Source: an uncultured Candidatus Saccharibacteria bacterium (GTDB taxonomy: Bacteria > Patescibacteriota > Minisyncoccia > Phycocordibacterales > UBA6899). Taken from it: a stretch of 64,000 nt of DNA. The first letter of the stretch is position 1. Each line of letters starts with the position of its first letter. The translations under genes and the position numbers were made by a program. The stretch covers positions 196,674 to 260,673 of the forward strand of contig CAYXYK010000003.1 in the NCBI GenBank assembly GCA_964469335.1, in the 5' to 3' direction. Positions 5,439 to 25,799 of the stretch are shown piece after piece. The notes below the pieces were generated by a model. It made no database searches. It was not told the origin of the DNA and saw only the letters and a program-made list of their open reading frames with translations.

Positions 5439-5734
5439 ATAATTTCAAAACTATTCAATAAAAACGTACAATTTTTGTGGGATATACTCCGGGATTTTTG
5501 CCTCAGTCGAGCCCCTATATTGCCTAGAATGATACGCTTCTTACTGCTCGGGAGCAAATGCACTCTTTTTGTGAGGCAATTTAGCCCCCAGAAGCCTATT
5601 CCAGAGCCTGTTTTTAATGGCTTCCACACTGCATTTTGAGCTGTATGGTACACACCTGTGCGGGTATCGTCGTTCCTAGGCCACCCCAGAATACAAAGGG
5701 CATATCATAGGCCGATTTCTGCTAAAATATACTG

Positions 5735-6445
5735 ATGGATGAAACTTCGAATACCGTGACGAATACGGACAGCGCACCGCCGAGTGCCGAAGAGACCGTA
5801 GTCGAGCCAGTCGCAGCGGAAGTTGTGTCCACCGTCGCGCCTGCCTCAACAGGCGAGCCAGAGGTTGCCGATGTGCCCGTCATACAGGTTGAGGCTCCTG
5901 CGCCCGAAGCATCGCAACCGGAAGCGAGTGGAAACGAAAATACGCTCGATAGTGAGCCTGACCCAGAAACCCCTGCACCTACTCCAACGCCTCAAGTCGT
6001 CGAACGCATCGTCGAAAAATTTGTCGAAAAAGAAGTGGTGAAAGAAGTGCCAGTCGAAAAGATCGTCGAACGCATCGTCGAGAAACCTGTTGAAGTGATC
6101 AAAGAAATTCCCGTCGAGAAAATAGTCTACAAAGAAGCCGAGCCGACGGATGCATCGCTGCGTGCCTATCTCGCGAGCTTCTTAAGGAGAGTTGGGCCGA
6201 AGGGGAGAGCCGCTCAGCACGAGCGTGCTCAAAAGAAGCGCGAAGCTGTACTCAAACTCTTTGACACCCATGAGCATGTCACTCACAAACTCGTCATGGA
6301 GACACTCAAGTTCACTGATCGAGATGCATCCCGCATCCTCGCCACCCTGCGCAGCGAAGGCAAGATAACGCTCCATGAACCCTCAGCTAGCCACCACGGC
6401 GGCAAAGGTACCTTCTATTCGAGATCGACTTCCGCAACGAAGTGA
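5735..6445 (+). CDS. Acidic tandem-repeat protein, hypothetical
   Basis: N-terminal acidic, proline-rich region, then repeated VEKIVERIVEKPVEV-like units, then a basic C-terminal domain. No family recognised. Confidence 0.5.
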   Translation: MDETSNTVTNTDSAPPSAEETVVEPVAAEVVSTVAPASTGEPEVADVPVIQVEAPAPEASQPEASGNENTLDSEPDPETPAPTPTPQVVERIVEKFVEKEVVKEVPVEKIVERIVEKPVEVIKEIPVEKIVYKEAEPTDASLRAYLASFLRRVGPKGRAAQHERAQKKREAVLKLFDTHEHVTHKLVMETLKFTDRDASRILATLRSEGKITLHEPSASHHGGKGTFYSRSTSATK

Positions 6446-6610
6446 GGAAGGCGAGTCGTGACTGGCATCTCCGGTGGGCGATACTTCTACGAAAAAGCTA
6501 AACCTGGTGTTGGGGGTCTTCCCACAACTTGGCTTATACAAAATCGCCGTCGGATACGAAGTAGGGAAACACACCCTCAAAGGGAACCCCACCCCCTAGG
6601 CCACCCCAGA

Positions 6611-6640
6611 GCCCCAGAACGTACTTCTGGGGCGCTTTTG
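6611..6640 (+). terminator. Putative intrinsic terminator
   Basis: ccccagaa-cgtac-ttctgggg hairpin followed by cgcttttg, about 165 nt downstream of the 5735..6445 gene. Confidence 0.45.
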
Positions 6641-6836
6641 CAAATACCGCTCAAGGGCACTCCTCGCTGCCGCCTCGCACTGCATCCCAAATTCCGCGTC
6701 CCACGATAAGTAGGTGAGACACGGTTCTATTGTCTAAGCAATTCGTTTGCTTTAGTTAAATGAAATGCTAGGATAATCCGTATTACAGCCAGTGGCCCCT
6801 ATGTAGCTCTCTGACCGTCCAGATTATTTAGATTTT

Positions 6837-9035
6837 ATGCATCCCGCAAAAAAAATACTAAAATCATTCAAAATTGATGCACGTACAGTCATTAATCTTG
6901 GTCGTGATAGCATAAAAAATCCGACAACTGCGATTTTGGAACTAGTAAAAAATAGTTATGATGCAGACGCGACTATTGTTGAAGTAGTAATTGGAGAAAA
7001 TGATATTCGCATAGCAGACAATGGAGTGGGAATGACTGAGTCGCATCTTGAAAAAAATTGGCTACGTATTGGTTATTCTGAAAAGCGCAAAGAAAAAATA
7101 AGTAAAAAGTTCCGTCGTAAAACTGGGGAAAAAGGTATAGGGCGGCTCTCCACTGATAGGCTGGGCGAGTATCTTTCTCTTCGCACTAAGGCAGAAAATT
7201 CAAGCCCGCTTCAGATGAGCGTAGATTGGGAAAGTTTTAATGTTGAAGGAAAAGAGCTATCACAGATTCCAGTTGAAATCATTGAAATCTCCTCACTCGA
7301 AATCCCCGCATCTAAGAAAGGAGCGGGAACGGAAATCAATATTTCCCGCCTTCGACAAAAATGGAATAAAGCAGATATTGAGCAACTCTACAGTGAACTA
7401 ACTGGGCTCCTTTCGCCATTTGCTGGGACATCTGATTTTCAGATTTTTTTCCACAGTTATTTAGTAGAAGAATTAAATGGACCAGTTAGATCTTCATATT
7501 ACGAAGCAGCTGAGGTAGCAATAAAGGCAAAATTCTCCGGAAAACAAAATAAGATTGAGTATCAAATTATAGATATAAACGCAAGGAAAAAAAGTAAACC
7601 TAAGAAACAACACATAACATGGGATCAACTTTCCCAAAGATTAAATGCATCTGATATCGGCTTCAATCCTGATTTGGTATGCGGCCCAATTTCCCTAGAG
7701 ATTCTTTATTTTGGTAGAACCAAAAGTAATCCTTTGCTGGAAGAAAAGGGATTTACTCTTGCGGGGTTACGTCGTTTTCTTGATAAAAATCAGGGGATTA
7801 AAATATACAGAGACGGCATAAGTGTTAAGCCTTATGGTTACAACAATGAACCAGCTGGAGACTGGTTAGGGCTTGCGCACAGAAAAGAGCGTGACCCCGC
7901 TGGACTCCTGAGACCCTCATATAAGGTATCTTCATATCAGCTTGTTGGAGCTGTCTCAATGAGTAGAGACTTAAACCCACAATTGAGAGATGGAGCTTCT
8001 AGAGAGGGTTTTGTTGAAAATGAAGCCTTTAATGATTTACGTGCTCTTACTTTATCTTGTGTCACCTTGCTTGAAAAATATAGACACGAGAAGGCGGTAA
8101 AAGAAAAAAAGCTCTCGAAGTCTAAAAAAGGCCTATTGGAAGATGTGGAAGGGTATAAAGATGACCTTGAGAGTTTTCAGAAAAAACTTGAAGAATTAAA
8201 GAGTAGGCTAGAGAATGACAAAACAAAAGACAGTAAAGAATCTGTTGCTGAACTAGCAGAGGTTATTCAGCAAACAGAAGCGACAAAAAAAAGGGTTGAA
8301 GAACTTCTCGATAATAATCGAGTTCTGAGCGGTCTTGCCACTGTTGGTATCGCTGCTGCTGTCTTTGGCCACGAAACTCAAACTGCCGTCTCGCTTTTTA
8401 AATCCAGTGTTTCTGCGGCACAATCCTTCCTTACTTTGCGATCTGGTCCGAATACAAAAAAAGCACTGGAGCAGCTGACTGCCTCCTTGACATATGCTAA
8501 ACAAGTCTCTTCTTGGGGTGCTTTTGCTATGGCTCGTGTACGGAAAGATAAAAGAACCCGACAAAAAATAAATATTAAGAATACCATTGAAGCAGTACTC
8601 GATGAGGTTGAGGATGCTTTTGGGGTGATAAAAATTGAAATAATTAGAGAACTAAAAGAGGTCAATGCAAAAGCCTTTGTTATGGACATAGAATCAATTG
8701 TTTTGAACCTTATGACCAATGCATATACTGCGTGTACCCATTCCGCACACTCCCGGAAAGTGAGAGTAGAACTTACTCAAAAGAATGAAGGAGGGGTTGA
8801 GGGCTTTGAAATAGTAGTAGCGGATAGTGGCCCAGGGGTTGATAAAGCAATTTCGGATATGATTTGGGAGCCGCTTTATACCACAAAAAAGGACAAAACA
8901 GGCAGAGAAGATGGGACAGGCTTGGGGCTTACAATAGTCAAGACAACAGTAGAAGAATTAGGCGGAATTCGTGACGTTAACAAGGATCCTAAACTCAAAG
9001 GAGCTCGATTTCGCGTCTGGCTCCCCACTAATTAG
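6837..9035 (+). CDS. Cytoplasmic GHKL ATPase / histidine-kinase-like protein: N-terminal MORC-type HATPase_c_3-like module plus C-terminal HisKA-like and HATPase_c modules
   Basis: N-terminus ILELVKNSYDADATIVEVVIGENDIRIADNGVGMT...GEKGIGRLS (Bergerat-fold N and G1 boxes). Coiled coil around aa 420-500. Candidate H-box FGHETQTAV. C-terminus NLMTNAYTA...VVADSGPGVD...GTGLGLTIVKTTVEELGG (N, G1, G2 boxes). No transmembrane segment. Confidence 0.75.
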   Translation: MHPAKKILKSFKIDARTVINLGRDSIKNPTTAILELVKNSYDADATIVEVVIGENDIRIADNGVGMTESHLEKNWLRIGYSEKRKEKISKKFRRKTGEKGIGRLSTDRLGEYLSLRTKAENSSPLQMSVDWESFNVEGKELSQIPVEIIEISSLEIPASKKGAGTEINISRLRQKWNKADIEQLYSELTGLLSPFAGTSDFQIFFHSYLVEELNGPVRSSYYEAAEVAIKAKFSGKQNKIEYQIIDINARKKSKPKKQHITWDQLSQRLNASDIGFNPDLVCGPISLEILYFGRTKSNPLLEEKGFTLAGLRRFLDKNQGIKIYRDGISVKPYGYNNEPAGDWLGLAHRKERDPAGLLRPSYKVSSYQLVGAVSMSRDLNPQLRDGASREGFVENEAFNDLRALTLSCVTLLEKYRHEKAVKEKKLSKSKKGLLEDVEGYKDDLESFQKKLEELKSRLENDKTKDSKESVAELAEVIQQTEATKKRVEELLDNNRVLSGLATVGIAAAVFGHETQTAVSLFKSSVSAAQSFLTLRSGPNTKKALEQLTASLTYAKQVSSWGAFAMARVRKDKRTRQKINIKNTIEAVLDEVEDAFGVIKIEIIRELKEVNAKAFVMDIESIVLNLMTNAYTACTHSAHSRKVRVELTQKNEGGVEGFEIVVADSGPGVDKAISDMIWEPLYTTKKDKTGREDGTGLGLTIVKTTVEELGGIRDVNKDPKLKGARFRVWLPTN

Positions 9036-9039
9036 TGCT

Positions 9040-9738
9040 ATGGAAAAGATGAAGTTGGCAATAGTTGACGATCGAAAGGAAACAAGGAATGTCGTTGTTG
9101 ATGTTATTGCTAATGCACTCGACAATCTTGAGATGACTGGCAAATGGTCTGTTTTGGGGGTACCACCCCTGTCTACATTAAAGGAGTACCCAGAGTGGAT
9201 AATTAGGGAAAATGTAGGTATTTTAATCGTGGATGAAAGATTGGGAGAAGTTCCAAATGCCTCAGGCAAGATTGCGGATTACAAAGGGAGTGATTTGGTG
9301 GCATTGCTTCGAACACAGTATAAAGAAATGCCTATTTATGGTGTTACTGCGTATCATGCTGACGACTCCCTTCAAGAGCATTTCTCTCTTTTCGACGATG
9401 TTGTTGAAAGAAGTGACTTCGCAGCAAAAACAGTCCAGTATATTGGCAGATTCCTGAGAACATATCAAAATTTTTTTGAAGAAAACGAGAAAGAGCTCAC
9501 TGAGCTTTCAAAGATTTCAAAAAAAATTGCCATTGGTACTGCAAGCAAGTCTGAAAAAAATAGGGCAGAGGCGATACAGAGAAATCTCGAGATACCAGTT
9601 AGTACCATTTCTATTGCAAATAGAAAAGAATGGCTTGACGACTATGAAAAAATATTAAATATATTTACTGAAACGCAAAATAAAGCGAACAAAATTTTGG
9701 ACAAAAATAAAACAAAAATAAAAGATAAGAAAAAATGA
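9040..9738 (+). CDS. Receiver (REC) domain protein with a lysine-rich helical C-terminus
   Basis: KLAIVDDRKE (acidic pocket), ILIVDERLGE (candidate phospho-Asp) and YGVTAYH (conserved Thr). Start set at ATG 9040, 4 nt after the upstream stop; the ORF track gives 8971 as an alternative start. Confidence 0.55.
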   Translation: MEKMKLAIVDDRKETRNVVVDVIANALDNLEMTGKWSVLGVPPLSTLKEYPEWIIRENVGILIVDERLGEVPNASGKIADYKGSDLVALLRTQYKEMPIYGVTAYHADDSLQEHFSLFDDVVERSDFAAKTVQYIGRFLRTYQNFFEENEKELTELSKISKKIAIGTASKSEKNRAEAIQRNLEIPVSTISIANRKEWLDDYEKILNIFTETQNKANKILDKNKTKIKDKKK

Positions 9739-10385
9739 AATGGTCATTAATTCACAAAAAAGCAAACCCAGCACTTGAGAAGCATGGTTATCGCGATCAT
9801 CGAGTGAGGGAATTTTTAAGACAAGAAGGACTTTTGCGTTGTGCATATTGTGCTGTTCATGAGAATGCTGTCGGGGGAGTCCAGGCATTTCATATTGACC
9901 ACTACAAACCCAAGAAAAAGTTTCCTGCTTTAACGAATTCACTCTCCAATCTCTTTTATGTTTGCCCCATCTGCAATCGATTTAAGTCAGATGATTGGCC
10001 TGCAAATCCTCGCCCCACGTTTAGTAATAGCTCATATCCAAATCCGTCGAAGGTAGATTACAGCAAGCTGTTTGACGTTAGTTCTAGTGACTATGTGGTT
10101 AGTGGCCTGTTTGTGGCCTCAAAATATATAGTAGAAAAGCTATACCTTAATCGACCTCAGTTGATTTTGGAGCGGCGCTACTATTACCTAAACCAAAAAT
10201 TTGAATATCTGAGTTCGAATTATTTACCTATAATTAATGGTTTGAGTTCCATTGGAAATAAAGAGGCAATTGAATGTATAGTAAAACTTGCTGAAATCAG
10301 TGGTAAACTCAATGAACTACATTCTGCCTTAAAAACAATACCGTTATATGAAGTAGCAGATGTGACAAAGAGGAAAAAGAAATGA
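9735..10385 (+). CDS. HNH family endonuclease (candidate restriction endonuclease)
   Basis: CAYCAVHE ... HIDHYKPKKK ... YVCPICNRFK: a Cys4 zinc-finger HNH motif. The start overlaps the upstream stop (ATGA). Confidence 0.7.
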   Translation: MKWSLIHKKANPALEKHGYRDHRVREFLRQEGLLRCAYCAVHENAVGGVQAFHIDHYKPKKKFPALTNSLSNLFYVCPICNRFKSDDWPANPRPTFSNSSYPNPSKVDYSKLFDVSSSDYVVSGLFVASKYIVEKLYLNRPQLILERRYYYLNQKFEYLSSNYLPIINGLSSIGNKEAIECIVKLAEISGKLNELHSALKTIPLYEVADVTKRKKK

Positions 10386-12019
10386 ACTTAAAAAAGGAAA
10401 CAGGCTCATATTACACACCACATATCCTATCGGATTTCATGGTTTTTCACCTGTTTTCAGAATATAAATTTCCTAAAAATATAAATATTTTGGAGCCTAG
10501 CGCCGGAGACGGAGTATTCTTTGATTCGCTTTTTAATAATCAAGTTTTTAAAAATAAGTTTAAACTTCCCAAAAAAATAATCATTGATGCTGTTGAAATT
10601 GAAAAGGTAGCGATGCGTCATCTGGAAGTGAAAACGAGAGATTATATTTCAAAATCAAGTGAAATAAACTACACCCAGGAGGATTATTTGAAATACCAGC
10701 ATAAGAATAAAAAGAAGTTTGATTTGGTTTTGGGGAACCCACCTTACATAAAAAGTAGTCTTTTAAATAAAACTCAGATTGAGTTTTGTGAACAAATCCA
10801 TAAAACTGCCGGGCTTGATAATAAGAAAATTAAGAATATATGGACAAGTTTTTTGATTGCTGGCGTAGACTCTCTGAATAAAGACGGGGTACTCTGCTTC
10901 GTACTTCCTGCTGAGTTGTTGCAGGTCATATATGCTAAAGAACTAAGAAACTATCTACGAGATAATTTTCAGAGAATTGAGATTTTTACCTTCAACGAAC
11001 TTATTTTCCCAGATATTGATCAAGATGTTATCGTTCTTATTTGCGCAAAAAAGCAAAACGCGGGTGTTTCTTTCTATCACGTAGAAAAGCTTGATGATCT
11101 AAAAAAGCCAACATATGTTAAGGAAAATGATAACATCCATCGCCAAACTCTAGATAAATGGACTAATTACATTTTATTAGACAATGAACTTAAGTTTTTA
11201 GATTCTCTAAAAACTCGTTTCTCTCCAATCAAAGACTATTGTCGAGCGGAAGTTGGTATTGTTACTGCAGCAAATGATTATTTCATCGTTAATAAAGAAA
11301 CTATTGAGAAATATCACTTGCAAAATGTTGCAAAGCCAATTTTGCAGAAAAGTTCTTTGATGCCAGCAACAATTAACTTTACAAAACTTGACCAGAAGAG
11401 CATTTCTAAAAAAAACAAGCCTTCATACTTTCTTAGATTTGAAGATGTTAATAAAAAAGTATTTTCAAAAGAAATACAAGAGTATCTAAAGATTGGCGAA
11501 GGTCGAAAAATAAACGAACGATATAAATGCAAGCTTCGAAGCAATTGGTACCACGTACCCTCAGTTTGGATTTCTGAAGGGTTCTTTACGAAGCGCTCAA
11601 ATTTATTTCCTAGGATGGCAGTAAATGATGCTAAGTCATACTCTACTGATGCATTTTATAGAATTAAAATGAAGGAACAAAACAATGTTAAAGATCTTGT
11701 ATTTTCATTTTACAATACTTTGACGTTAATTTTTGCTGAGCTAGAGGGACGTTACTATGGTGGGGGAGTGCTCGAGCTAACTCCTAATGAGTATAAGAAT
11801 TTATCTATACCATATTGTAAAAATATAAAGGATTCTACATTTGCAAAGTTAGATAAAATGTTGAGATCTAAGACAGATATAAAAGAAGTTCTAAACTATA
11901 CAGACAAAATAATTTTAAAAGAGAATTACAAAATGTCTGATCAGGAAATTTCCAGGTTGTCTAAGATTTATTCAAAACTTGTTACTCGGAGATTAAAAAA
12001 TAGAAAACTTAGTTTTTAG
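10382..12019 (+). CDS. N6-adenine DNA methyltransferase, gamma class (Eco57I/TaqI-like), candidate Type II modification enzyme
   Basis: Motif I ILEPSAGDGVFF precedes motif IV LVLGNPPYIKS. Long C-terminal region is a likely target-recognition domain. Start overlaps the HNH stop (ATGA). Confidence 0.8.
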   Translation: MNLKKETGSYYTPHILSDFMVFHLFSEYKFPKNINILEPSAGDGVFFDSLFNNQVFKNKFKLPKKIIIDAVEIEKVAMRHLEVKTRDYISKSSEINYTQEDYLKYQHKNKKKFDLVLGNPPYIKSSLLNKTQIEFCEQIHKTAGLDNKKIKNIWTSFLIAGVDSLNKDGVLCFVLPAELLQVIYAKELRNYLRDNFQRIEIFTFNELIFPDIDQDVIVLICAKKQNAGVSFYHVEKLDDLKKPTYVKENDNIHRQTLDKWTNYILLDNELKFLDSLKTRFSPIKDYCRAEVGIVTAANDYFIVNKETIEKYHLQNVAKPILQKSSLMPATINFTKLDQKSISKKNKPSYFLRFEDVNKKVFSKEIQEYLKIGEGRKINERYKCKLRSNWYHVPSVWISEGFFTKRSNLFPRMAVNDAKSYSTDAFYRIKMKEQNNVKDLVFSFYNTLTLIFAELEGRYYGGGVLELTPNEYKNLSIPYCKNIKDSTFAKLDKMLRSKTDIKEVLNYTDKIILKENYKMSDQEISRLSKIYSKLVTRRLKNRKLSF

Positions 12020-12050
12020 TTAGATTCATGATAGATATCAAGTTATCAAA

Positions 12051-12620
12051 ATGAACATTGTTATATTGGGATGGGGCTCTCTATTGTGGGATAAAAATAT
12101 AAATTTTGATGAAACACATAAGGAATGGCTATTCGACGGCCCAAGTTTACCGTTAGAGTTTTCTCGTGTGTCAGAATCGAGAGGAGGAGCGCTAACGCTC
12201 GTAATTGATACTCAAAATGGAACCAAATGCCAAGTTGCGTATTCTTTGAGTATCAGGAAGACACTACGTGATGCCATAAATGACTTGACCAAAAGAGAGG
12301 GAACATCAACAAAACGAATAGGTTTTGTTGATGTGCTGTCTGGTAGTATTTCAGATGACGAGATTTCTCTTGGAATTAAATCTTGGGCGAAGGAACATGA
12401 TATTGAAGCAGTAGTATGGACAAATCTGCAGAGTAATTTTTGGGATAAAGTTGGAGAGAAATTTAGCGTCGAATCTGCGGCCACTTATCTTACTTCACTC
12501 GCAGAAGAGTCAAAAATAGAAGCTCTGAAATATATTAAATCGGCACCAGAATTTGTCCAAACACCACTGAGGAAGGAGTTCGAGATAAGGTTGGCCACAA
12601 ATGAGTTTGGAGAAAAGTGA
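12051..12620 (+). CDS. Hypothetical protein
   Basis: 189-aa ORF in the AT-rich island between the two R-M modules; no family recognised. Confidence 0.45.
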   Translation: MNIVILGWGSLLWDKNINFDETHKEWLFDGPSLPLEFSRVSESRGGALTLVIDTQNGTKCQVAYSLSIRKTLRDAINDLTKREGTSTKRIGFVDVLSGSISDDEISLGIKSWAKEHDIEAVVWTNLQSNFWDKVGEKFSVESAATYLTSLAEESKIEALKYIKSAPEFVQTPLRKEFEIRLATNEFGEK

Positions 12621-12659
12621 TGGGTTTGCAATCCCTAAATAGGGGAGTAGTCTGGAATT

Positions 12660-13067
12660 ATGACTGAGAAAAAAACGGACACATACGAGACGTTAGAATT
12701 CTGGCTAGGTGATGACTGGAAGAAAATTTCTGATGAACACAAGAGGATTTTAGCAGATAAGCTTGATTCACTTACAGATACAAATTTCGAAACGACAAAG
12801 GGTTTGTTTGAAAGAATACGCGACCGTCGTGAGATTCAGGGAGTGCTCATTTTGGGCGTAGTGCTCGGTATCCTAGGAAACTTAGTTGCTAATTATCTTG
12901 ATAGATATTTCCTCCGTTTTGGCTTTGCGTATTCGCTTGTGGTATCAGTAGGTTTTATTGTTGTGTATATTATTTTGAACCGAGCATTTGATAAAGGAAT
13001 CTCATCAATGGTGAGGAGCAATCCAACCCTACGTGCGATGATCGTCGAGAAAACCGAAAAGAAATAA
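12660..13067 (+). CDS. Hypothetical small membrane protein (2 predicted transmembrane helices)
   Basis: Hydrophobic segments VLILGVVLGILGNLVANYL and FAYSLVVSVGFIVVYIIL. Confidence 0.4.
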   Translation: MTEKKTDTYETLEFWLGDDWKKISDEHKRILADKLDSLTDTNFETTKGLFERIRDRREIQGVLILGVVLGILGNLVANYLDRYFLRFGFAYSLVVSVGFIVVYIILNRAFDKGISSMVRSNPTLRAMIVEKTEKK

Positions 13068-13199
13068 CAAAGGAAGTTCGGCACCAATTAATTGCAAAAA
13101 ATTTTTGGTAGATTTGTGCGAATTTCCCTCTAAATTCAACACATTCACTCAATCCCGAACAGACTAGCAACAAAGCCATCTTTGCCGTATTCTTATTGA

Positions 13200-15581
13200 A
13201 TGTCGCAGGAGGCATATTCTCGTGTTGTGATCGACCGAAAACTTCGTGAATCTGGTTGGGATATTGAGGATTCCCGTCAGGTTGTTTTTGAAGACCACGG
13301 AAACGCTGGTAGAGCTGATTATGTACTTAAGGATGGCTCTGGGAGGGCTATTGCACTCATTGAGGCTAAGAAACCAGAGATAGACCCCTACAGTGCAAAG
13401 AAACAGGCTTCTGATTACATAGAACTCCAGTATCCTCATGTGCGGTTTATTTATCTAGCTAACGACAAGCTAATTTACTTCTGGGATTTGGACGGAGGCG
13501 GAGACGCTCAAGTTGTCCCAGCGTTCTACTCCCAAGACGATTTGGTTCGTCGCCAGAGTGTTCGATCTCAAAATCTCGCTAAGAAACTAACAGAAGAGAC
13601 AATTCAAAAAGATTACTTCACCGATGTTGCTGACAGCGCAATCCTCCGTCCATACCAGCTCTCGGCATGGGAAACTATTGCTGATGGATATGATGCTGGG
13701 AAGCGTGCTTTCTTGCTGGAGATGGCTACGGGAACAGGAAAGACAATGCTCGCGTCTCTCATCATTTCTCGTTTCTTGCGCACAAACAACGCACAAAACG
13801 TTCTCTTTCTTGTAGACCGTAAATCACTCGCCATTCAAACCAAGAACACATTCGAGCGACTTCTTCGGGGAGTGTCGGCTGTCGGAACATACTGGGGCTC
13901 AAACAGGAAGAACCTCACGGGGTCAAACGTAGTGGTTGCCACAATTCAGTCTCTCATGCTCCACGGTGCACGTGATTTCTCGTCGGGATACTTCGACCTC
14001 ATCATCCACGACGAAGCACACCGAAGCATCTACTCCCCAGAGGCTCGTTCAGCAGTTGACCACTTCGTGGGAGTAACCAAGATTGGTCTGACTGCTACTC
14101 CTCGTGATTTCTTGAAGAATATTGACCTTGAACAGCTCAATGCAAAAGATCCTCGTAAACTAGAGCGCAGAGTACAGCGTGATACATATTCATATTTTGG
14201 TTGTGAACAAGGGGTGGCAACGTATCGCTACACGATACAAGACGGTGTGAGTGAGAAGTTTCTTGTTCCGCCAAAGTATCACAAGATGAAAACCTCGATT
14301 ACTCAACAGGCATTGTCTGACGAAGGTATAACGACTCTCGCTGACGTTGATCTCGAAGAGGGTGAAAGCATCAAAGTGAAAGACCTTGAAAAGAAGGTGC
14401 ATTTCCCTGAGCGGAATCGTCGCATGATGCAGGAATTTCTTGAACATGCAGTGCGCACACCAGACGGAGAGATCGGAAAGACACTTATCTTTGCGGTATC
14501 GCAAAATCACGCACTCGCACTAGAGAAAATACTGAATGAGCTGAAGCCCGAGTACGGAGGAAAGTTTGCAATGACCATCACTTCGCGAGTGCAGGGGGCT
14601 CATGATATTGCTAAGGATTTCTCGAAAGAGACAAGTAAGCTCCCACGAGTGGGAGTGACGGTAGAAATGCTCGCTACGGGCTTTGATTGCCCTGAGATAC
14701 TCAACATTGTTCTGGCTCGTCCAATATTTGATCCTGTGAGCTACCAGCAGATTAAAGGGCGCGGTACACGTCTGTGCCCAGAGATAAACAAAAAAGAATT
14801 TGTGGTGTTCGACTTCTGTGGTGTCGTTGAATATTTTGACGAGAAGTACGACTGGGAAGCACCAATCGTCCTGCCTCCCGTTGGTGGTGGAAATACAAAT
14901 GAGGGCGGAGCGGAGAGTGGAGGTGGAACAACATGCATAGGAATCGATGGAGAAGGAGGTGAGCCAGAAGAACGCATTTCACAAACACCAGATGTGGTGC
15001 TTTCTCGCGACATCATTACACTTCCTGAAGGTGATACGGTAGATAAAAACATGTATCGCGACGAGTGGACAAAGGCGGTGCAAGATTTCATGAGTAAGAG
15101 AGGCGAGTTGGTCGCATCCGCTCTTGAAGACGAAGATAAGGTAGAGGAGCTCATCGCAGAAATCAACGCCACACTACTCAATCAGCCCAAGCTTTACTTC
15201 AACGAGGAAAATCTCCAAATATCACACCGTATCGTCGCTGGCGTGCGAGAGTTCTTCCTTTCTGCTGTAGGAAAGCAATCGCTCCCAACCCGCGATGAAC
15301 AGCTCACTGGGTTCAAGCAGGCATTGGTCAACAAGTTTGCCCAATCAGATAAGCCAGAAGCCACCTTCAAGAGAGCCGTTATGGGGGAGTTCATTGCAGA
15401 TCAAGCTATTACAAACGACCACTTCCGAAAGTCTGTTATCGAGAAGCCAACACTCGACTTTTTGCGCTGGGACGAGTTTGAGCAAGCTTACTCGGTTACA
15501 GAGTGGCTCAATGTTTTCACAAAAGATGAGCTCACTGAATTGGTTTCGGATATTTCAAATGCACGCATTCTGAAGATTTAA
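13200..15581 (+). CDS. hsdR: Type I-like restriction enzyme R subunit (N-terminal PD-(D/E)xK nuclease plus SF2 DEAH helicase)
   Basis: N-terminal HsdR_N-like segment VVIDRKLRESGWDI...ADYVLKD...IALIEAKK. Helicase motif I LEMATGTGKT, motif II IIHDEAHRS, motif VI QIKGRGTR. At 793 aa it is short for a canonical HsdR. Confidence 0.75.
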   Translation: MSQEAYSRVVIDRKLRESGWDIEDSRQVVFEDHGNAGRADYVLKDGSGRAIALIEAKKPEIDPYSAKKQASDYIELQYPHVRFIYLANDKLIYFWDLDGGGDAQVVPAFYSQDDLVRRQSVRSQNLAKKLTEETIQKDYFTDVADSAILRPYQLSAWETIADGYDAGKRAFLLEMATGTGKTMLASLIISRFLRTNNAQNVLFLVDRKSLAIQTKNTFERLLRGVSAVGTYWGSNRKNLTGSNVVVATIQSLMLHGARDFSSGYFDLIIHDEAHRSIYSPEARSAVDHFVGVTKIGLTATPRDFLKNIDLEQLNAKDPRKLERRVQRDTYSYFGCEQGVATYRYTIQDGVSEKFLVPPKYHKMKTSITQQALSDEGITTLADVDLEEGESIKVKDLEKKVHFPERNRRMMQEFLEHAVRTPDGEIGKTLIFAVSQNHALALEKILNELKPEYGGKFAMTITSRVQGAHDIAKDFSKETSKLPRVGVTVEMLATGFDCPEILNIVLARPIFDPVSYQQIKGRGTRLCPEINKKEFVVFDFCGVVEYFDEKYDWEAPIVLPPVGGGNTNEGGAESGGGTTCIGIDGEGGEPEERISQTPDVVLSRDIITLPEGDTVDKNMYRDEWTKAVQDFMSKRGELVASALEDEDKVEELIAEINATLLNQPKLYFNEENLQISHRIVAGVREFFLSAVGKQSLPTRDEQLTGFKQALVNKFAQSDKPEATFKRAVMGEFIADQAITNDHFRKSVIEKPTLDFLRWDEFEQAYSVTEWLNVFTKDELTELVSDISNARILKI

Positions 15582-15582
15582 T

Positions 15583-17493
15583 ATGGACACCATCTCAACA
15601 TACAAAAGCAGAATAGACGGGCTGATGAATATTCTCTTTGGTGCAGGGGTTTCCAACCCTCAAACCATCATCGAGCAAATTAACTACTTGCTCTTTCTGC
15701 GCGCTCTCTCAGTCAAAGACGACGAGGCAGAGCTTCTTGGTATCGCCGATGAATCAGGCAAGATCTTCACGGGCAAGCTATCGAAGTACAAATGGTCAAA
15801 TCTCCTCGCACTGAACGCCGAGGATCTGTTCAAAATACTTGAGGAGTCTTATGGCGCGATTCAAAAAGAATCTGCGAATGCAACAGTAAAGCTCTTGTTC
15901 CGCAATGCCCATGTAAAGATTTTCGACAAGCCTACGCTCCGCAGGGTGCTTCACGAGATCGAGGAGTTTTCGAAGGAACTCGACACCATTGCCCACGAAG
16001 GCAACAAGGACGTGTTTGGGGATATGTATGAGTTCCTTCTCTCGAAGCTTTCCTCTGCGGGAACGAACGGGCAATTTCGCACCCCACGACACATAATCGA
16101 CTTCATGATCCGAGTACTCGACCCAAAGATTGGCGAGACGATACTTGATCCCGCTTGTGGCACGGCAGGTTTTCTTGTTGCCGCCTACCGCTATATTGCG
16201 GGCGAGTATACGAGCGACAAGATGAAGAAGGCAGGCAGTCCACGTGCAATGGACAAGCTCTCGTCCGAGGAAAAGAATTTTCTCTATAATCACATGTTCA
16301 CGGGCTTCGACAGTGACGAGGACATGATCAAGTTCGGAATGATGAACTTGCATTTGCACGGACTTACGAAATCTCATCTTGTTCGTCAAAATACGCTGAC
16401 TGATACAACTGGGTACAAGGCGAAGTTTGATGTCATTCTCGCCAACCCTCCTTTCAGTGGAAAGCTCGACGAGGAAAGCGTATCGGAAGACATTCGCATG
16501 GGGACAAAAGCGACTGAGCTTCTTTTCTTACGTTTTATGATAGACCACCTATCAAACAGAGGGAAAATGGCGGTGGTAGTGCCAGAAGGTGTGCTCTCAA
16601 GTTCTTCAAGGGCAAACACGAGGGTTCGTGAAATGTTGCTAGAAAATGGTCTATGGTGTGTCGTTTCACTTCCCAAAGGTATTTTTAATCCATATGCAGG
16701 TGTTAAAACCAACATTATATTTCTTGATAAGTTATTTGCCAGTAAGTCGAAAAATATTCTGTTTGTAACACTAGCAAATGATGGCTTTGAGCTTACTGCA
16801 CAGAGACGAGCTACGCAGAAAAATGATTTACCTGAAATATTAGAATTGTTATCAAGATGGAAGATGGACGAAAACACAGAAAGTACTCTCATAAAATCGG
16901 TCGAAAAATCAAAAATTATCGACAATGCCGACCACACTCTCTTGAAAGAGCAGTATGAAATTAACAGTAGGCACACAAAGGCAAAATACCCAATGATAAA
17001 GTTGGGAGAGCTTTGTGAAATTAAGACTGGAAAGAAGGATGTAAATGAAGGAAACCCAGATGGGGAATATCCTTTTTTTACTTGCGCCAAAGAGCCAACT
17101 CGAAGCGATAGTTATTCTTTCGACACAGAAGCCCTGCTTATTGCTGGCAACGGTGATGTTGGTGCTGTAAAGTATTATCTCGGGAAGTTTGAGGCATATC
17201 AAAGAACATATGTTTTGGTGAATTTTGAAAAAAGTGTTTTACCAATGTTCATTTATCACTATCTTGACGCGACGCTTAAACCCATTGTATCTGCACAAAA
17301 ATTAGGTAATACGATGCCATATATAAAAATGGGAATGCTATCAAATTTTGAGATATCTCTTCCGCCCCTAGAAATCCAGCAACAAATTGTCTCTGAAATT
17401 GAGAGTCATCAGCTTGCGGTAGATGAAGCCTACGAAGAAGCCGAAAGACAAAAGAGGAAAATCAAAGAGAGGATCGACAAGATTTGGGAGTAA
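15583..17493 (+). CDS. hsdM: Type I restriction-modification methyltransferase HsdM with a fused C-terminal single target-recognition domain (HsdS-like)
   Basis: N-terminal HsdM_N-like region. SAM motif ILDPACGTAGFL. Catalytic ILANPPFSG. C-terminal ~180 aa resemble an HsdS TRD plus conserved helix (LGELCEIKTGKKD ... LPPLEIQQQIVSEIE). Confidence 0.8.
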   Translation: MDTISTYKSRIDGLMNILFGAGVSNPQTIIEQINYLLFLRALSVKDDEAELLGIADESGKIFTGKLSKYKWSNLLALNAEDLFKILEESYGAIQKESANATVKLLFRNAHVKIFDKPTLRRVLHEIEEFSKELDTIAHEGNKDVFGDMYEFLLSKLSSAGTNGQFRTPRHIIDFMIRVLDPKIGETILDPACGTAGFLVAAYRYIAGEYTSDKMKKAGSPRAMDKLSSEEKNFLYNHMFTGFDSDEDMIKFGMMNLHLHGLTKSHLVRQNTLTDTTGYKAKFDVILANPPFSGKLDEESVSEDIRMGTKATELLFLRFMIDHLSNRGKMAVVVPEGVLSSSSRANTRVREMLLENGLWCVVSLPKGIFNPYAGVKTNIIFLDKLFASKSKNILFVTLANDGFELTAQRRATQKNDLPEILELLSRWKMDENTESTLIKSVEKSKIIDNADHTLLKEQYEINSRHTKAKYPMIKLGELCEIKTGKKDVNEGNPDGEYPFFTCAKEPTRSDSYSFDTEALLIAGNGDVGAVKYYLGKFEAYQRTYVLVNFEKSVLPMFIYHYLDATLKPIVSAQKLGNTMPYIKMGMLSNFEISLPPLEIQQQIVSEIESHQLAVDEAYEEAERQKRKIKERIDKIWE

Positions 17494-17715
17494 ACAGGAA
17501 GTGGGTAGCGGAATAGGAAGAGAAATGGGGGCAGGCATCAATTAATTCGAAAATGCGTTGTCTAATAATGCGGAAAATTTTTTGGTAGCGACCTAGATTT
17601 TTACGACCGTAGGAAGATAAAAATGGAAGTATTCTTTGTGGTGAATATGAAGATGGATCAAACAGGGGATACAACGACTGAGCCCCCGTTTTCCTCCTCT
17701 TTCCTTTTCTTGTCT

Positions 17716-17748
17716 ATACTCTAATTCGCGCGAATGTGCGAATAAGGA
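17716..17748. promoter_or_regulatory. Palindromic element ctaattcgcgcgaatgtgcgaat (copy 1), candidate ArsR-family operator
   Basis: Imperfect inverted repeat taattcgc / gcgaatta about 60 nt upstream of the ArsR-like gene; near-identical copy at 18087-18112. Confidence 0.4.
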
Positions 17749-17807
17749 AACGGCAGAGTGACATTGTGAAGACTGGACGAGAAAATTCCTTGTGTTAGTT
17801 TTCGGGA

Positions 17808-18092
17808 ATGAAGCAAGAAACCAAGGCAGACATCAAGACTCTCGAGAAACAGATGAAGGCGCTCGCCAATGCCCGCCGCCTTGCGATCCTCAGGTATCTC
17901 AAGAAGAATAAGGAAGCTACGGTGGGAGATATTGCCGAGGAGATCAAGCTATCTTTCAAGTCGACATCCAAGCACCTCGCCATTCTCTACGCAGCAGGAG
18001 TCCTCGAGAAAGACCAGCGCAACATCGCGGTTTTCTATCGCCTCACGGTAGCTCCCCACACCATCGCAAAACACATTCTCTCTATGCTCTAA
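17808..18092 (+). CDS. ArsR/SmtB-family transcriptional regulator
   Basis: wHTH RLAILRYLKKNKEATVGDIAEEIKLSFKSTSKHLAILYAAGVL. Confidence 0.7.
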   Translation: MKQETKADIKTLEKQMKALANARRLAILRYLKKNKEATVGDIAEEIKLSFKSTSKHLAILYAAGVLEKDQRNIAVFYRLTVAPHTIAKHILSML

Positions 18093-18756: not shown

Positions 18757-18790
18757 CGTAAATCATTCCAACATTCTGCAGAATGTTGGA
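18757..18790. promoter_or_regulatory. 30-nt perfect palindrome cattccaacattctgcagaatgttggaatg, candidate operator
   Basis: Perfect inverted repeat immediately upstream of or overlapping the start of the second ArsR-like gene; second copy at 19160-19200. Confidence 0.45.
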
Positions 18791-19177
18791 ATGTTCGTAA
18801 AGATTGCAAAACTCATTGGCGGGAGTAGTTTTTTGGGTATGCTATACCACAAACCGAAAAAAACAGGGACGAATGTCGGGGTGAGAGTTGGAGTAGAAAG
18901 GGGAAGCGGTCCAAAGACCGTCAAGCAGCTCGAGCGCTACTTCAAGGGAGCAGCGAATCACAACCGCATCGCCATTCTCCTTGTAGTCGCAAAGGAGCCG
19001 GGGATCACTGTTGATCAGCTCACCGAGCGACTCGACGGCAACCTTAAGACTATTTCACAACACACGCATTCACTAGTCCGTGCAGGACTCTTGAATAAAT
19101 CGTACAAGGGACGCATGGTCGCCCACGAACTTTCTCCCTACGGCCGCCGCTTCGTCTCCTTCATCAAATCATTCTAA
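18791..19177 (+). CDS. ArsR/SmtB-family transcriptional regulator (start codon uncertain)
   Basis: KQLERYFKGAANHNRIAILLVVAKEPGITVDQLTERLDGNLKTISQHTHSLVRAGLL. Confidence 0.65.
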   Translation: MFVKIAKLIGGSSFLGMLYHKPKKTGTNVGVRVGVERGSGPKTVKQLERYFKGAANHNRIAILLVVAKEPGITVDQLTERLDGNLKTISQHTHSLVRAGLLNKSYKGRMVAHELSPYGRRFVSFIKSF

Positions 19178-19200
19178 CATTCTGCAGAATGTTGGAATGA
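19160..19200. terminator. Second copy of the 30-nt palindrome with flanking A/T runs (probable bidirectional terminator)
   Basis: aaatcattctaacattctgcagaatgttggaatgatttttt. Confidence 0.45.
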
Positions 19201-19211
19201 TTTTTTGAGAT

Positions 19212-19250
19212 AAAAAATCGCGCCGCACCTTGTGGGTGCGGCGGGGGGGG
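19212..19250 (-). terminator. Conserved terminator hairpin, copy 1 (minus-strand function)
   Basis: aaaaaa-tcgcgccgcaccttgtgggtgcggcgg-gggggg on the plus strand. On the minus strand this reads as C-run, hairpin, U-run, immediately 3' of gene 19251..19592. Confidence 0.6.
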
Positions 19251-19698: not shown

Positions 19699-19735
19699 TA
19701 AAAAAACGCGCCGCACCTTGTGGGTGCGGCGGGGC
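19699..19735 (-). terminator. Conserved terminator hairpin, copy 2
   Basis: aaaaaaacgcgccgcaccttgtgggtgcggcggggcg. Confidence 0.6.
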
Positions 19736-20564: not shown

Positions 20565-20605
20565 TAAAAAATCGCGCCGCACCTTGTGGGTGCGGCGGGG
20601 GTGGG
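20565..20605 (-). terminator. Conserved terminator hairpin, copy 3
   Basis: aaaaaatcgcgccgcaccttgtgggtgcggcgggggtggg. Confidence 0.6.
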
Positions 20606-21261: not shown

Positions 21262-21750
21262 ATGAATGCGCTCAAAATGACCGTGATTGCCGCAGTAATC
21301 GCGGAGATAGAGTCCATGCGCTCGACTGCTCGCGAGGGTCGAGAAAACGCGATCGAGGAATCCCGCCACCACAAAGGTGCGATGGAGTCCCGCTACGATA
21401 CGTTCAAGGAAGAAGCTCAATATCTCATGGCAGCGCAAGACGTTCGCCTCGCCGAGTTCGAATCCATCCTCCTGACATTGCGACAGCTGTCTGAACGGCA
21501 TGTCGCTTCTTCGAGTGTCGTAGAGTCACTTTCGCTTGTCGAGCTTGAAGATGACAGCGAGGTGCGCTCCCATTTCCTCATTCTGCCAGTCGGCGGCGGG
21601 TTCAGTGTGGAGGTGAACGGACAAAAAATCACCACCATCAGCCTCAAGACCCCGCTCGCACAGGCAATGATCGGAAAGTCGGTCGACGATGATGTCGAAC
21701 TCGTGGTCGCTGGCAGGTCGAAAAACTACGCGATCGTTTCGGTCGCGTGA
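21262..21750 (+). CDS. GreA/GreB-family protein (transcription elongation factor homolog)
   Basis: C-terminal FKBP-like domain ISLKTPLAQAMIGKSVDDDVELVVAGRSKNYAIVSV resembles the GreA C-terminal domain. Confidence 0.6.
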   Translation: MNALKMTVIAAVIAEIESMRSTAREGRENAIEESRHHKGAMESRYDTFKEEAQYLMAAQDVRLAEFESILLTLRQLSERHVASSSVVESLSLVELEDDSEVRSHFLILPVGGGFSVEVNGQKITTISLKTPLAQAMIGKSVDDDVELVVAGRSKNYAIVSVA

Positions 21751-23376: not shown

Positions 23377-23907
23377 ATGGAAATCGAGATTAGAGCAAAA
23401 CTAAAAACTCCCAAGGCAATCATTGCGCGGCTCAAAAAAGATCGCGCGGTTAAATTTGTCGGCGAAAAAGTTGAACGCGATCTGTATTTCAAGCATGCGA
23501 CAGACCGCAAGCGTCAACTCGTGTTGCGCATCCGCAGAACAAAAAATGGCGACATGCTCACTTTCAAGGCAAAGAGCAGTGGAGATGATACTGCTTGGCC
23601 TGATGTCGATTTACCCCTTGCGGACGCTCCTGCCCTCGAGGGAATCCTTCGTGGGGCGAACTATGAAGAAGTGGTAAGAATTTCCAAAACTCGTTCGACT
23701 TACAAATCAGGACATTTCGAAATCAATATCGACCACATCAAGGAACTAGGCTGGTATATCGAGATAGAAGGAAGGGGTACACAGAAACAGCGTCCGCAAA
23801 TAGAGCGGGCACTTGAGCAGATGTTTCTCAGTTTTGGAATACAGGAGTCAGACATTGTACGGCAAGGCTACGTTCCTCTCGCAATTGCCAAACAAAATAA
23901 ATCCTAG
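23377..23907 (+). CDS. CYTH-domain protein (class IV adenylate cyclase / triphosphate tunnel metalloenzyme family)
   Basis: N-terminal MEIEIRAKL (ExExK-type motif), LVLRIRR, C-terminal YIEIEGRG; 176 aa. Confidence 0.7.
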   Translation: MEIEIRAKLKTPKAIIARLKKDRAVKFVGEKVERDLYFKHATDRKRQLVLRIRRTKNGDMLTFKAKSSGDDTAWPDVDLPLADAPALEGILRGANYEEVVRISKTRSTYKSGHFEINIDHIKELGWYIEIEGRGTQKQRPQIERALEQMFLSFGIQESDIVRQGYVPLAIAKQNKS

Positions 23908-23914
23908 TTCGAAC

Positions 23915-24385
23915 ATGGATAAGATTTATGTCACAGAAAAAGGGCGCTTGTTGCTCGTGGGAAAAAGAGATGAGTTAGTTGCAGAGTTGAGAGCATCACA
24001 GTTTGACAAAGGCAAAGCAGCAGCAGGTGACTCAAATTCTTGGCACGACAATGCCGAGTTTGAAATGCATGCAACAAAAGAGATGATGCTTGCTAAGCAG
24101 GTTTCGGAGATCATGCAGCAACTCGAACATGCGATTCTTGTTGAGTCGCCTGTCTCCGATCATACTCTTTCAATAGGGCATGTAGCAGTGCTTCATTCCG
24201 AAGAAGGAGGTCTTGTTGAATATGTTGTAGCAGGTTTTGGAGAAACAGATCTTCGTGCAACACCAAAACGTCTCAGCTACGATTCGCCTATGCTCCGTGA
24301 ATTTTTTGGTAAATCTATCGATGCCGCAGCACATGTTTTAGTGAAAGGGGAGCCGAAGAAATTTACACTTAAGGAAATCAAATAA
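23915..24385 (+). CDS. GreA/GreB-family protein, Rnk-like (lacks long coiled-coil)
   Basis: GDSNSWHDNAEFEMHATKE resembles the GreA GDLSENAEY segment; C-terminal FKBP-like domain. Start set at ATG 23915. Confidence 0.6.
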   Translation: MDKIYVTEKGRLLLVGKRDELVAELRASQFDKGKAAAGDSNSWHDNAEFEMHATKEMMLAKQVSEIMQQLEHAILVESPVSDHTLSIGHVAVLHSEEGGLVEYVVAGFGETDLRATPKRLSYDSPMLREFFGKSIDAAAHVLVKGEPKKFTLKEIK

Positions 24386-24453
24386 TCCTACTAGAGTTGT
24401 CAGGAACTTTTTCTGAGCAATCCTATACAAAATTTTTTTGGTAAAATAACGTC

Positions 24454-24906
24454 ATGAAAAAATTACATTTTTCCGTTCACGTCAACGCAAGCAAGGAGAA
24501 GGTTTGGGATATCATGCTCAGCGATGCGACCTATCGCGAGTGGACATCGGTATTCAACCCAGGAGGTTCATATTACAAAGGAGACTGGAGCGAGGGGAGC
24601 AAGATGCTATTCCTTGGCCCTGATGATAAGGGTGCAATCGGAGGGATGGTGAGCATGATAGACAAGAACATCCCGAATGAATTCCTGTCGATCAAGCACG
24701 TCGGAGAGCTAAAGGGCGACGTGGAAGACACGACCAGTCCTGAGGTGCTCAAATGGTCCGGAGCATTCGAGAACTACACGTTCAAAGAGGTGGATGGCGG
24801 TACCGAGCTCTCGGTCGACCTCAACGTCGTTGAAGAATTTGAAGACTACATGACCGACACCTGGCCCCCAGCCCTCGAGAAACTCAAAGGAATGTGCGAA
24901 CGATAG
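24454..24906 (+). CDS. SRPBCC / AHSA1-like domain protein
   Basis: Sequence profile typical of the activator-of-Hsp90-ATPase / polyketide-cyclase SRPBCC fold (KVWDIMLSDATYREW...). Confidence 0.55.
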   Translation: MKKLHFSVHVNASKEKVWDIMLSDATYREWTSVFNPGGSYYKGDWSEGSKMLFLGPDDKGAIGGMVSMIDKNIPNEFLSIKHVGELKGDVEDTTSPEVLKWSGAFENYTFKEVDGGTELSVDLNVVEEFEDYMTDTWPPALEKLKGMCER

Positions 24907-25760: not shown

Positions 25761-25799
25761 GCCCCGCATACACGACGTATGTGGGGCATTTGTTTGTAT

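Follow-up and report, generated by a model that had tools for sequence, protein, structure and literature searches.

An Ambrosia-like cassette and a type I restriction-modification pair in a putative strain-variable defense hotspot of a Patescibacterium

RESULTS

Gene content of the island

The window analyzed here is a stretch of 64,000 nucleotides (nt) from an uncultured Candidatus Saccharibacteria bacterium (assembly GCA_964469335.1, contig CAYXYK010000003.1), and our subject is an AT-rich island near its left end, whose eight genes we call A to H (Table 1). Genes A-D encode a predicted histidine kinase, a stand-alone receiver, an HNH nuclease, and an N6-adenine methyltransferase; E and F are small orphan genes; and G-H are a predicted type I restriction-modification (R-M) pair. 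We propose, with a probability of about 0.8, that the segment from ~6.6-6.7 to 17.57 kb is the occupant of a strain-variable hotspot, and that it is a mosaic of a four-gene cassette of the Ambrosia type, two orphan genes, and a two-gene type I R-M system.

An initial annotation of the window had listed eight plus-strand island genes, including the small ones at 12051-13067, and an ArsR-family neighbor on the right; all are present where it had placed them, and the ArsR-family assignment of the neighbor is confirmed by Pfam HTH_5. We place the start of gene B at 9040 rather than 8971, in agreement with an identical database protein of 232 amino acids (aa). The same annotation had read the island as two R-M modules, which is correct for the type I pair (genes 7 and 8 of the island), but genes A-D (1 to 4) are probably not a classical R-M pair. 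The gap between A and B is 4 nt, and the stop and start codons of B/C and of C/D overlap by 4 nt, an arrangement that indicates that A-D are one operon.

Table 1. Genes and junctions of the island and the first conserved gene to its right
Feature	Position	Strand	Annotation
Left junction zone	6543..6700	.	Divergence from contig L086; terminator-like hairpin ~6603-6640 located 3' of the 236-aa gene
Gene A, 732 aa, AbrB homologue	6837..9035	+	Pfam HATPase_c_3 30-150, HATPase_c 617-731
Gene B, 232 aa, AbrC homologue	9040..9738	+	REC domain 1-130, then three long helices
Gene C, 216 aa, AbrD homologue	9735..10385	+	PtuB-type HNH; Pfam HNH E 2.9e-7; PADLOC PtuB E 9.7e-21
Gene D, 545 aa, Eco57I-like N6-adenine methyltransferase, NPPY motif	10382..12019	+	M_Eco57I_C 1.4e-38, Eco57I, N6_Mtase (Pfam)
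Gene E, 189 aa, uncharacterized family	12051..12620	+	1622 cluster representatives at E<=1e-3
Gene F, 135 aa, small predicted membrane protein	12660..13067	+	No family match (Pfam, PADLOC, NCBIfam, PHROG)
Gene G, 793 aa, HsdR	13200..15581	+	PD-(D/E)xK N-terminus, DEAH helicase; Pfam ResIII, HSDR_N, Helicase_C
Gene H, 636 aa, HsdM fused to one HsdS target recognition domain	15583..17493	+	N6_Mtase 2e-56 (141-458), Methylase_S 1.5e-20 (471-608), HsdM_N
Right junction	17572..17574	.	Five contigs, representing two alternative cargo types, 98-100% identical from 17571-17574 rightwards
ArsR-family regulator	17808..18092	+	Pfam HTH_5 1.1e-10; first conserved gene right of the hotspot

Genes A-D resemble the Ambrosia system

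Gene A joins two ATPase modules in one protein. A MORC/Hsp90-like GHKL ATPase with its transducer (residues ~1-395) is followed by a coiled coil, a dimerization and histidine phosphotransfer (DHp) helix with H512, and a C-terminal histidine-kinase catalytic domain. With the AlphaFold2 (AF2) model (pLDDT 78.5), Foldseek retrieves Hsp90 and MORC2 (ATPase plus transducer) over the first ~460 residues, and HK853, CpxA, and ZraS over the DHp and catalytic domains. Many histidine-kinase matches were also obtained in NCBIfam, together with a match of residues 11-188 to the BbrUII/HgiDII family (E 7.6e-25). Across 38 homologues, down to 42% identity, residues E35, N39, D42, D61, G63, G65, G97-G102, H512, E513, N624, N628, and G693-L698 are invariant. 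Among them are the Bergerat-fold residues of each ATPase module; the H-box reads VFGHET.

The receiver assignment of gene B was settled by fold search. Pfam returns only Response_reg (PF00072) at E 0.029, and a profile search against the PDB gives marginal CheY matches (E ~0.008), but the AF2 model reaches a pLDDT of ~90 over a (beta-alpha)5 fold and matches PDB receiver domains in Foldseek at E 1e-5 to 1e-6 (TM 0.72-0.77). D11 and D65 are invariant among 20 homologues, D10 and T103 nearly so, and the column at position 124 is mostly R or K. The nearest solved structures to gene C are the PtuB proteins of Retron I-A (Ec78), and no recognizable DNA-reading domain was seen in it. PADLOC assigns gene D to MTase_II (E 8e-152).

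Ambrosia was described in Pseudomonas aeruginosa as an XRE regulator (AbrR), an N6-adenine methylase (AbrA), a HATPase kinase (AbrB), a REC protein (AbrC), and an HNH nuclease (AbrD); all five genes are needed for defense, the genes are induced by infection, the receiver mutant D60A is inactive, and point mutants in AbrB, AbrC, and AbrD each abolish phage defense (bioRxiv 10.1101/2025.09.30.679545). We compared the window proteins with the Ambrosia sequences of Table S1 of that preprint, with AbrB represented by its first 399 aa. Gene A is 37% identical to AbrB (E 2e-69, AbrB residues 12-397) and gene C is 34% identical to AbrD (E 2e-21), while a family profile of gene B aligns with AbrC over its full length (hhalign probability 99.4%, E 9e-22, 200 columns). 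The residues whose loss abolishes Ambrosia defense, AbrB N40, AbrC D60, and AbrD H60, align with N39, D65, and H56 of the window proteins, and A, B, and C have the features of an AbrB-type sensor, an AbrC-type receiver, and an AbrD-type HNH protein, respectively.

The two systems share a parts list of GHKL histidine kinase, REC protein, PtuB-like HNH protein, and N6-adenine methylase. They differ in the methylase, which belongs to a different subfamily in each (the 448-aa AbrA, encoded upstream, in Ambrosia; an Eco57I-like protein of 545 aa, encoded downstream, in the window); in the regulator, since Ambrosia has the HipB-like XRE protein AbrR, whereas the window order is kinase, receiver, HNH protein, and methylase without an XRE gene; and in the host, a Pseudomonas in one case and a Patescibacterium in the other. 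Judged by homology, the window cassette is thus a predicted member of an Ambrosia superfamily, with its methylase swapped, its genes in a different order, and no XRE gene.

Parts of this architecture are known from other systems. A purely computational study of 2021 described "HK-like" proteins of HATPase_c_3-DHp-HATPase_c layout and stand-alone "RR-like" proteins beside R-M genes, related them to paraMORC ATPases, and proposed a regulatory role for the pairs (Bellieny-Rabelo et al., PMC8011034). The window likewise has a HATPase_c_3, DHp (His-Glu), and HATPase_c kinase adjoining a stand-alone receiver beside R-M genes. It shares with the HEF_HK/Response_reg_2 pairs of that study the kinase architecture, a divergent receiver without another domain, and solubility; the published set, however, comes largely from proteobacteria, and its partners are C5 methylases encoded upstream and nucleases of the HNH_2 or Vsr type, whereas the window has an N6-adenine methylase and a PtuB-type HNH protein (PMC8011034). 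PF19191 (HEF_HK) and PF19192 (Response_reg_2) gave no match at E<=10 in the DHp segment of A or in B, and the relatives L057, L076, L055, and L096 were negative as well, with the presence of both models in our library copy unconfirmed.

As in Septu and Retron I-A, gene C is a PtuB-type HNH protein paired with an ATPase. The partner in Septu is the ABC/AAA-type PtuA, whereas here it is a GHKL/MORC-like histidine kinase, joined by a receiver and a methylase, and Pfam and PADLOC detect no PtuA-like protein in the island. The Detocs anti-phage system uses a histidine kinase-to-receiver phosphorelay as its switch, as the window cassette would; it consists of a kinase with a TPR sensor, a buffer receiver, and a receiver-nucleosidase effector that depletes ATP. 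The window cassette differs from Detocs in having a MORC-like ATPase as its sensor and a separate HNH nuclease and DNA methylase as its putative effectors.

Conservation of the cassette across genomes

Gene A has more than 1500 homologues, the closest of them from Candidatus Paceibacterota and Nomurabacteria. Our conservation set comprised 38 genome loci with an A homologue at >=38% identity, drawn from Patescibacteria, Bacteroidota, Gemmatimonadota, Planctomycetota, Acidobacteriota, Myxococcota, Chloroflexota, Dependentiae, Balneolales, and Gammaproteobacteria. Homologues of B and C lie directly downstream of A in 37 of the 38; in the remaining one, the contig stops within A. As far as gene order and homology can tell, the A-B-C core is a conserved unit across more than 10 phyla.

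The methylase is more variable. A D-type enzyme follows the core in 25 loci; 12 loci lack one, and 8 of the 9 that we tested carry another N6-adenine methylase instead, located upstream, downstream, or on the opposite strand. The cassette of a Klebsiella plasmid likewise has a different N6-adenine methylase upstream, and other clade members have such enzymes of ~400-450 aa, similar in size to AbrA, upstream or downstream. HTH_3 (XRE) genes precede three Bacteroidota cassettes (L015, L016, and L035); presence of this gene in some cassettes and its absence from the window suggest that the regulator is accessory.

Another Paceibacterota genome (L001) carries a 72%-identical A-D cassette in a different context. 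There a large serine recombinase is encoded on the opposite strand directly after the cassette (L001:15238-16614), and may offer a mobilization route elsewhere. More distant A-like kinases (27-28% identity) occur with other partners, in Anabaena azotica (L055:8004-11738) and in the actinobacterium Buchananella (L062:7854-11275). The Anabaena kinase is followed by a REC-like protein of 227 aa and a protein with a metallo-beta-lactamase fold, and the actinobacterial kinase by a 360-aa protein with a REC-like N-terminus. These associations hint at a sensor module that is used with more than one kind of effector. A search for receiver-effector ("Rosetta-stone") fusions among the ~355-aa proteins that follow distant A-like genes yielded one REC-like N-terminus, with scores too weak to use.

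Base composition of the island

The G+C content (GC) is 0.407 at 6700-17800, compared with 0.521 for the rest of the window. Against a background of 103 1-kb windows outside the island (mean 0.521, SD 0.029), 1-kb windows within it deviate by z = -3 to -7 at 6.5-13 kb and by z = -3 to -4.6 at 16.5-17.5 kb. The initial annotation had described a fall from ~55-60% GC to roughly 35%. The drop is genuine and exceeds the scatter of the window by a wide margin, but the background lies at ~52%, with 55-59% confined to the rpoC, dnaG, and rpoD genes at the left, and the island is not uniformly at 35%. Sliding-window GC, a check it had suggested, and GC at third codon positions (GC3) both show a strong deviation from the flanks.

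The island is a compositional mosaic with three GC3 classes. Genes A-F (6837-13067) have a GC of 0.32-0.40 and a GC3 of 0.30-0.40; hsdR and the methylase part of hsdMS (13200-16980) have a GC of 0.45-0.48, which is 1.2-2 SD under background, and a GC3 of 0.47-0.52; and the part of hsdMS that encodes the target recognition domain (TRD; 16981-17493) returns to a GC of 0.39. GC3 in the neighboring housekeeping and core genes is 0.68-0.73. A second, smaller low-GC patch lies at 23500-24500 (GC 0.41-0.47), amid sequence of 52-58% GC, with an open reading frame at 23813-24385 whose GC3 is 0.39; it may be another small insertion.

Junctions and strain-variable cargo

The left flank of the island runs through the end of rpoC, dnaG, rpoD, and a low-complexity gene of 236 aa. 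The nearest RpoD proteins with a taxon name come from Candidatus Lloydbacteria, "Patescibacteria group," and Pacebacteria, which, with the closest relatives of gene A, points to a Paceibacterota-like host of the candidate phyla radiation with a GC of ~52%. Contig L086, whose RpoD is 99% identical, matches the window at 94% nt identity and is collinear with it to 6543; similarity is patchy to ~6700, beyond which L086 carries an unrelated low-GC gene with an NYN domain. A second contig, L085, stays collinear up to its end at 6593.

On the right, a protein identical to the ArsR-family regulator occurs on nine other contigs with varying upstream cargo. Among the ArsR contigs listed, four have a 652-aa SLFN_AlbA_2 protein upstream, to which the longest of them (L116) adds an N6_N4 methylase and a Dam-like methylase; one has a T5orf172 protein, an EcoRI-like methylase, and a GmrSD_N-HNH enzyme; and one is the same as the window at this site. 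The SLFN_AlbA_2 and T5orf172/GmrSD contigs are unrelated to the window left of ~17572. Their convergence on the window sequence sets the right junction there, some 230 nt inside the boundary of 17800 given by the initial annotation. Cargo in the window and in its relatives has a GC of 0.38-0.42, against ~0.50-0.52 for the backbone. With the radical-SAM gene at 22339 as anchor, a scan of metagenomes returned only relatives of 63-71% identity that share just the 21.3-23.9 kb block, which left the right junction unresolved. The relatives whose right flank is 98-100% identical to the window carry a 55-nt insertion there, at ~17631, which may be a miniature mobile or repeat element.

Alternative defense cargos at the same junctions in near-identical strains make the locus a hotspot between two conserved genes, and we count at least three such cargos at one fixed site between the 236-aa gene and the ArsR gene. 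The suggestion that this is a horizontally acquired defense island is thereby borne out: its GC and GC3 deviate, near-identical strains carry other genes at the site, as the comparison with related genomes that the initial annotation had called for reveals, and A-D recur in unrelated contexts.

How the cargo moves had been left as a puzzle, as no integrase, transposase, or tRNA was visible. We reach the same result with a tRNA search of the 64-kb window and with Pfam, PADLOC, and NCBIfam scans of every island protein for integrase and transposase domains. A repeat search of the window, which covers the recommended look for direct repeats at the boundaries, found neither direct nor inverted repeats bracketing the island. 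The features of an integrase-mobilized island (a recombinase, a tRNA or att site, and flanking direct repeats) were thus all absent here. As no recombinase is present, we propose homologous recombination in the conserved flanks as the most economical answer, and cargo is probably exchanged in this way. Integrase-less defense hotspots, in which cargo alternates among strains at junctions of conserved genes without a recombinase, are a known type of locus. Compared with other hotspots flanked by core genes, the present case lies in a small-genome Patescibacterium and is documented from metagenomic contigs only.

The type I pair and the orphan genes

Gene G matches the EcoAI/FtnUII family of NCBIfam (E 1.6e-76, below the curated cut-off) and the type I R subunit 3h1t in the PDB (E 2e-37), and gene H matches PDB type I M subunits (E 5e-39). 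Their translations contain the DEAH and NPPF motifs, in keeping with an HsdR and a gamma-class N6-adenine HsdM. The pair shares nuclease/helicase, methylase, and TRD domains with EcoAI-like type I systems, but its single TRD, starting at residue ~467 (nt 16981-17493), is fused to the C-terminus of HsdM, and the island contains no separate HsdS gene with two TRDs. A similar pair of a helicase gene and an M-S fusion occurs on Escherichia coli IncF plasmids. The single fused specificity domain is likely to work as a dimer that recognizes a symmetric bipartite site. Its GC3 of 0.35, compared with 0.52 for the methylase part, suggests that this domain was swapped in separately. From its domain content, G-H is the only predicted conventional restriction system in the island.

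The family of gene E has an invariant G-S-L near the N-terminus and nearly invariant W8 and W13. Searches of Pfam, PHROG, PADLOC, and the PDB turned up no family or structural relative for gene E, with a weak ChaC match (E 0.013) as the only signal. Members of the family occur on viral contigs of 189-365 kb and in a metagenome-assembled genome of a giant virus (L100-L114), and no neighbor gene is conserved beside them on 15 viral contigs; longer members reach 708 aa, and ten of these scanned with Pfam gave no family. No homologue of F adjoins E homologues elsewhere, and the E-F pair recurs only on a contig from a sample that holds the same strain. We considered E and F as part of the A-D system and rejected this, as an E homologue lies nearby in 1 of 82 loci only.

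DISCUSSION

We identify, in a reduced Patescibacteria genome, a site between two conserved genes at which the window strain carries an Ambrosia-like cassette, an orphan pair, and a type I R-M system. In the scenario that we favor, the three modules (A-D, E-F, and G-H) would have been acquired independently. An infection-related cue would be read by the MORC/Hsp90-like GHKL module of A, upon which the kinase would autophosphorylate at H512 and transfer the phosphate to D65 of receiver B. Phosphorylated B would then switch on the action of nuclease C and methylase D against invading DNA. Our analysis addresses the domains, catalytic residues, operon structure, co-inheritance, and homology to AbrB, AbrC, and AbrD; phosphotransfer and output would follow by analogy with the Ambrosia experiments.

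The composition and the strain comparison leave very little room for a native origin. A low-GC stretch that is vertically inherited, and AT-rich for functional reasons, would agree with the lack of an integrase, tRNA, or flanking repeats and with an hsdR/hsdM part within 2 SD of background GC. This account is contradicted by the strain comparison, since strains that are almost identical have other genes in place of these between the same junctions; moreover, the cassette occurs in unrelated contexts elsewhere, once beside a serine recombinase, and the GC3 of 0.30-0.40 stands against the much higher values of the neighboring core genes. We regard a native origin as scarcely credible.

For the cassette itself, we consider it unlikely that A-D are a classical type II R-M system, in which D protects a site that C, perhaps with A, cuts when it is unmethylated, while kinase and receiver tune expression. 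Such a reading would account for the type II methylase call of D and for the matches of the A N-terminus to restriction-enzyme models (REase_II in PADLOC, BbrUII/HgiDII in NCBIfam), and a methylase always adjoins the cassette. A restriction partner, however, would need to track methylase specificity. A, B, and C are conserved over their full length with no variable specificity region, yet they are paired with at least two unrelated subfamilies of N6-adenine methylase, which argues against site-matched restriction, and C lacks a recognizable DNA-reading domain. Moreover, the Ambrosia methylase is required for defense, and phage grown on the methylase alone stayed sensitive (bioRxiv 10.1101/2025.09.30.679545). 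We give even less weight to the idea that A and B are an ordinary cytoplasmic two-component pair that regulates host genes and merely adjoins the nuclease and methylase genes, which we hold to be highly improbable. The histidine-kinase core of A and the receiver of B are each complete, and the 2021 comparative study proposed a regulatory role (PMC8011034), but B has no detected DNA-binding or enzymatic output domain. A-D are also translationally coupled, co-inherited across phyla, and situated in a hotspot whose alternative cargos are all defense genes, and point mutants in the homologous AbrB, AbrC, and AbrD each lose phage defense (bioRxiv 10.1101/2025.09.30.679545).

Several observations weigh against our proposal of an Ambrosia-type cassette in a recombining hotspot. 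The transcriptional model of Ambrosia relies on a winged helix-turn-helix (HTH) domain in AbrC (bioRxiv 10.1101/2025.09.30.679545), and we see no winged HTH or other DNA-binding domain in gene B, either with Pfam or in the model, in which pLDDT falls below 65 after residue 185. Gene D is only 22% identical to AbrA (E 0.03) and not orthologous to it, and Pfam scans detect no HTH protein corresponding to AbrR in or beside the cassette. With a methylase unlike AbrA and with AbrR missing, regulation may differ from that of Ambrosia. Ambrosia itself rests on one Pseudomonas preprint, and a defense function for the present clade is a prediction from its genes. At the level of the locus, the left junction was drawn from two short contigs, and recombination as the mechanism of cargo exchange is one that we only infer.

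Lack of an HTH domain in B and the frequent absence of an XRE gene call a purely transcriptional output into question. We therefore raise a further, tentative idea, which we regard as possible but doubtful, that the phosphorelay acts post-translationally in this lineage without XRE genes and HTH domains. The GHKL clamp would sense invading DNA or nucleotide state and set off His-to-Asp transfer, the helical tail of the phosphorylated receiver would directly license the HNH nuclease, and the mark of the co-translated methylase would direct or limit cutting. If true, this would describe a post-translationally gated nuclease under two-component control, distributed from bacteria of the candidate phyla radiation to Bacteroidota and Planctomycetota.

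Ambrosia was reported only in Gammaproteobacteria (bioRxiv 10.1101/2025.09.30.679545). By our data its core is distributed far more widely, extending over more than 10 phyla and tolerating different N6-adenine methylases. A mapped hotspot without a recombinase should also help in understanding how immunity genes are exchanged in the reduced genomes of Patescibacteria.

Minor features of the locus

Exact-protein look-ups for gene A, an identical database twin, and the kinase gene at 21689 returned no match. A promoter and terminator scan gave fewer matches than shuffled sequence and was uninformative.

In the left flank, the 236-aa protein (5735-6445) has an N-terminal half of low complexity, rich in Pro, Glu, and Val, with tandem VEKIVERIVEK repeats (DNA repeats at 5997-6094), and no family match was found for it. 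Its gene is flanked by an exact 16-nt repeat, CCTAGGCCACCCCAGA (5675-5690 and 6595-6610), the second copy of which enters the hairpin at 6603-6640. The spacer between rpoD and this gene is strain-variable, and L086 has an extra gene of 183 aa.

In the right flank, two ArsR-like genes (17808-18092 and 18791-19177) are each bracketed by two copies of their own 34-nt palindrome, 94-97% identical, at 17713-17746/18081-18114 and at 18760-18793/19166-19199. These palindromes could serve as operators, with one copy ahead of the regulator and the other ahead of the small gene that follows. The second ArsR-like module (18757-19210) is absent from L116. Farther right there are three exact copies of a GC-rich hairpin of 25 nt, CGCGCCGCACCTTGTGGGTGCGGCG (19219-19243, 19707-19731, and 20573-20597), where none would be expected by chance; with degenerate copies near 25799, 29375, and 30767, it looks like a dispersed element of terminator-like or repetitive extragenic palindromic (REP)-like character.

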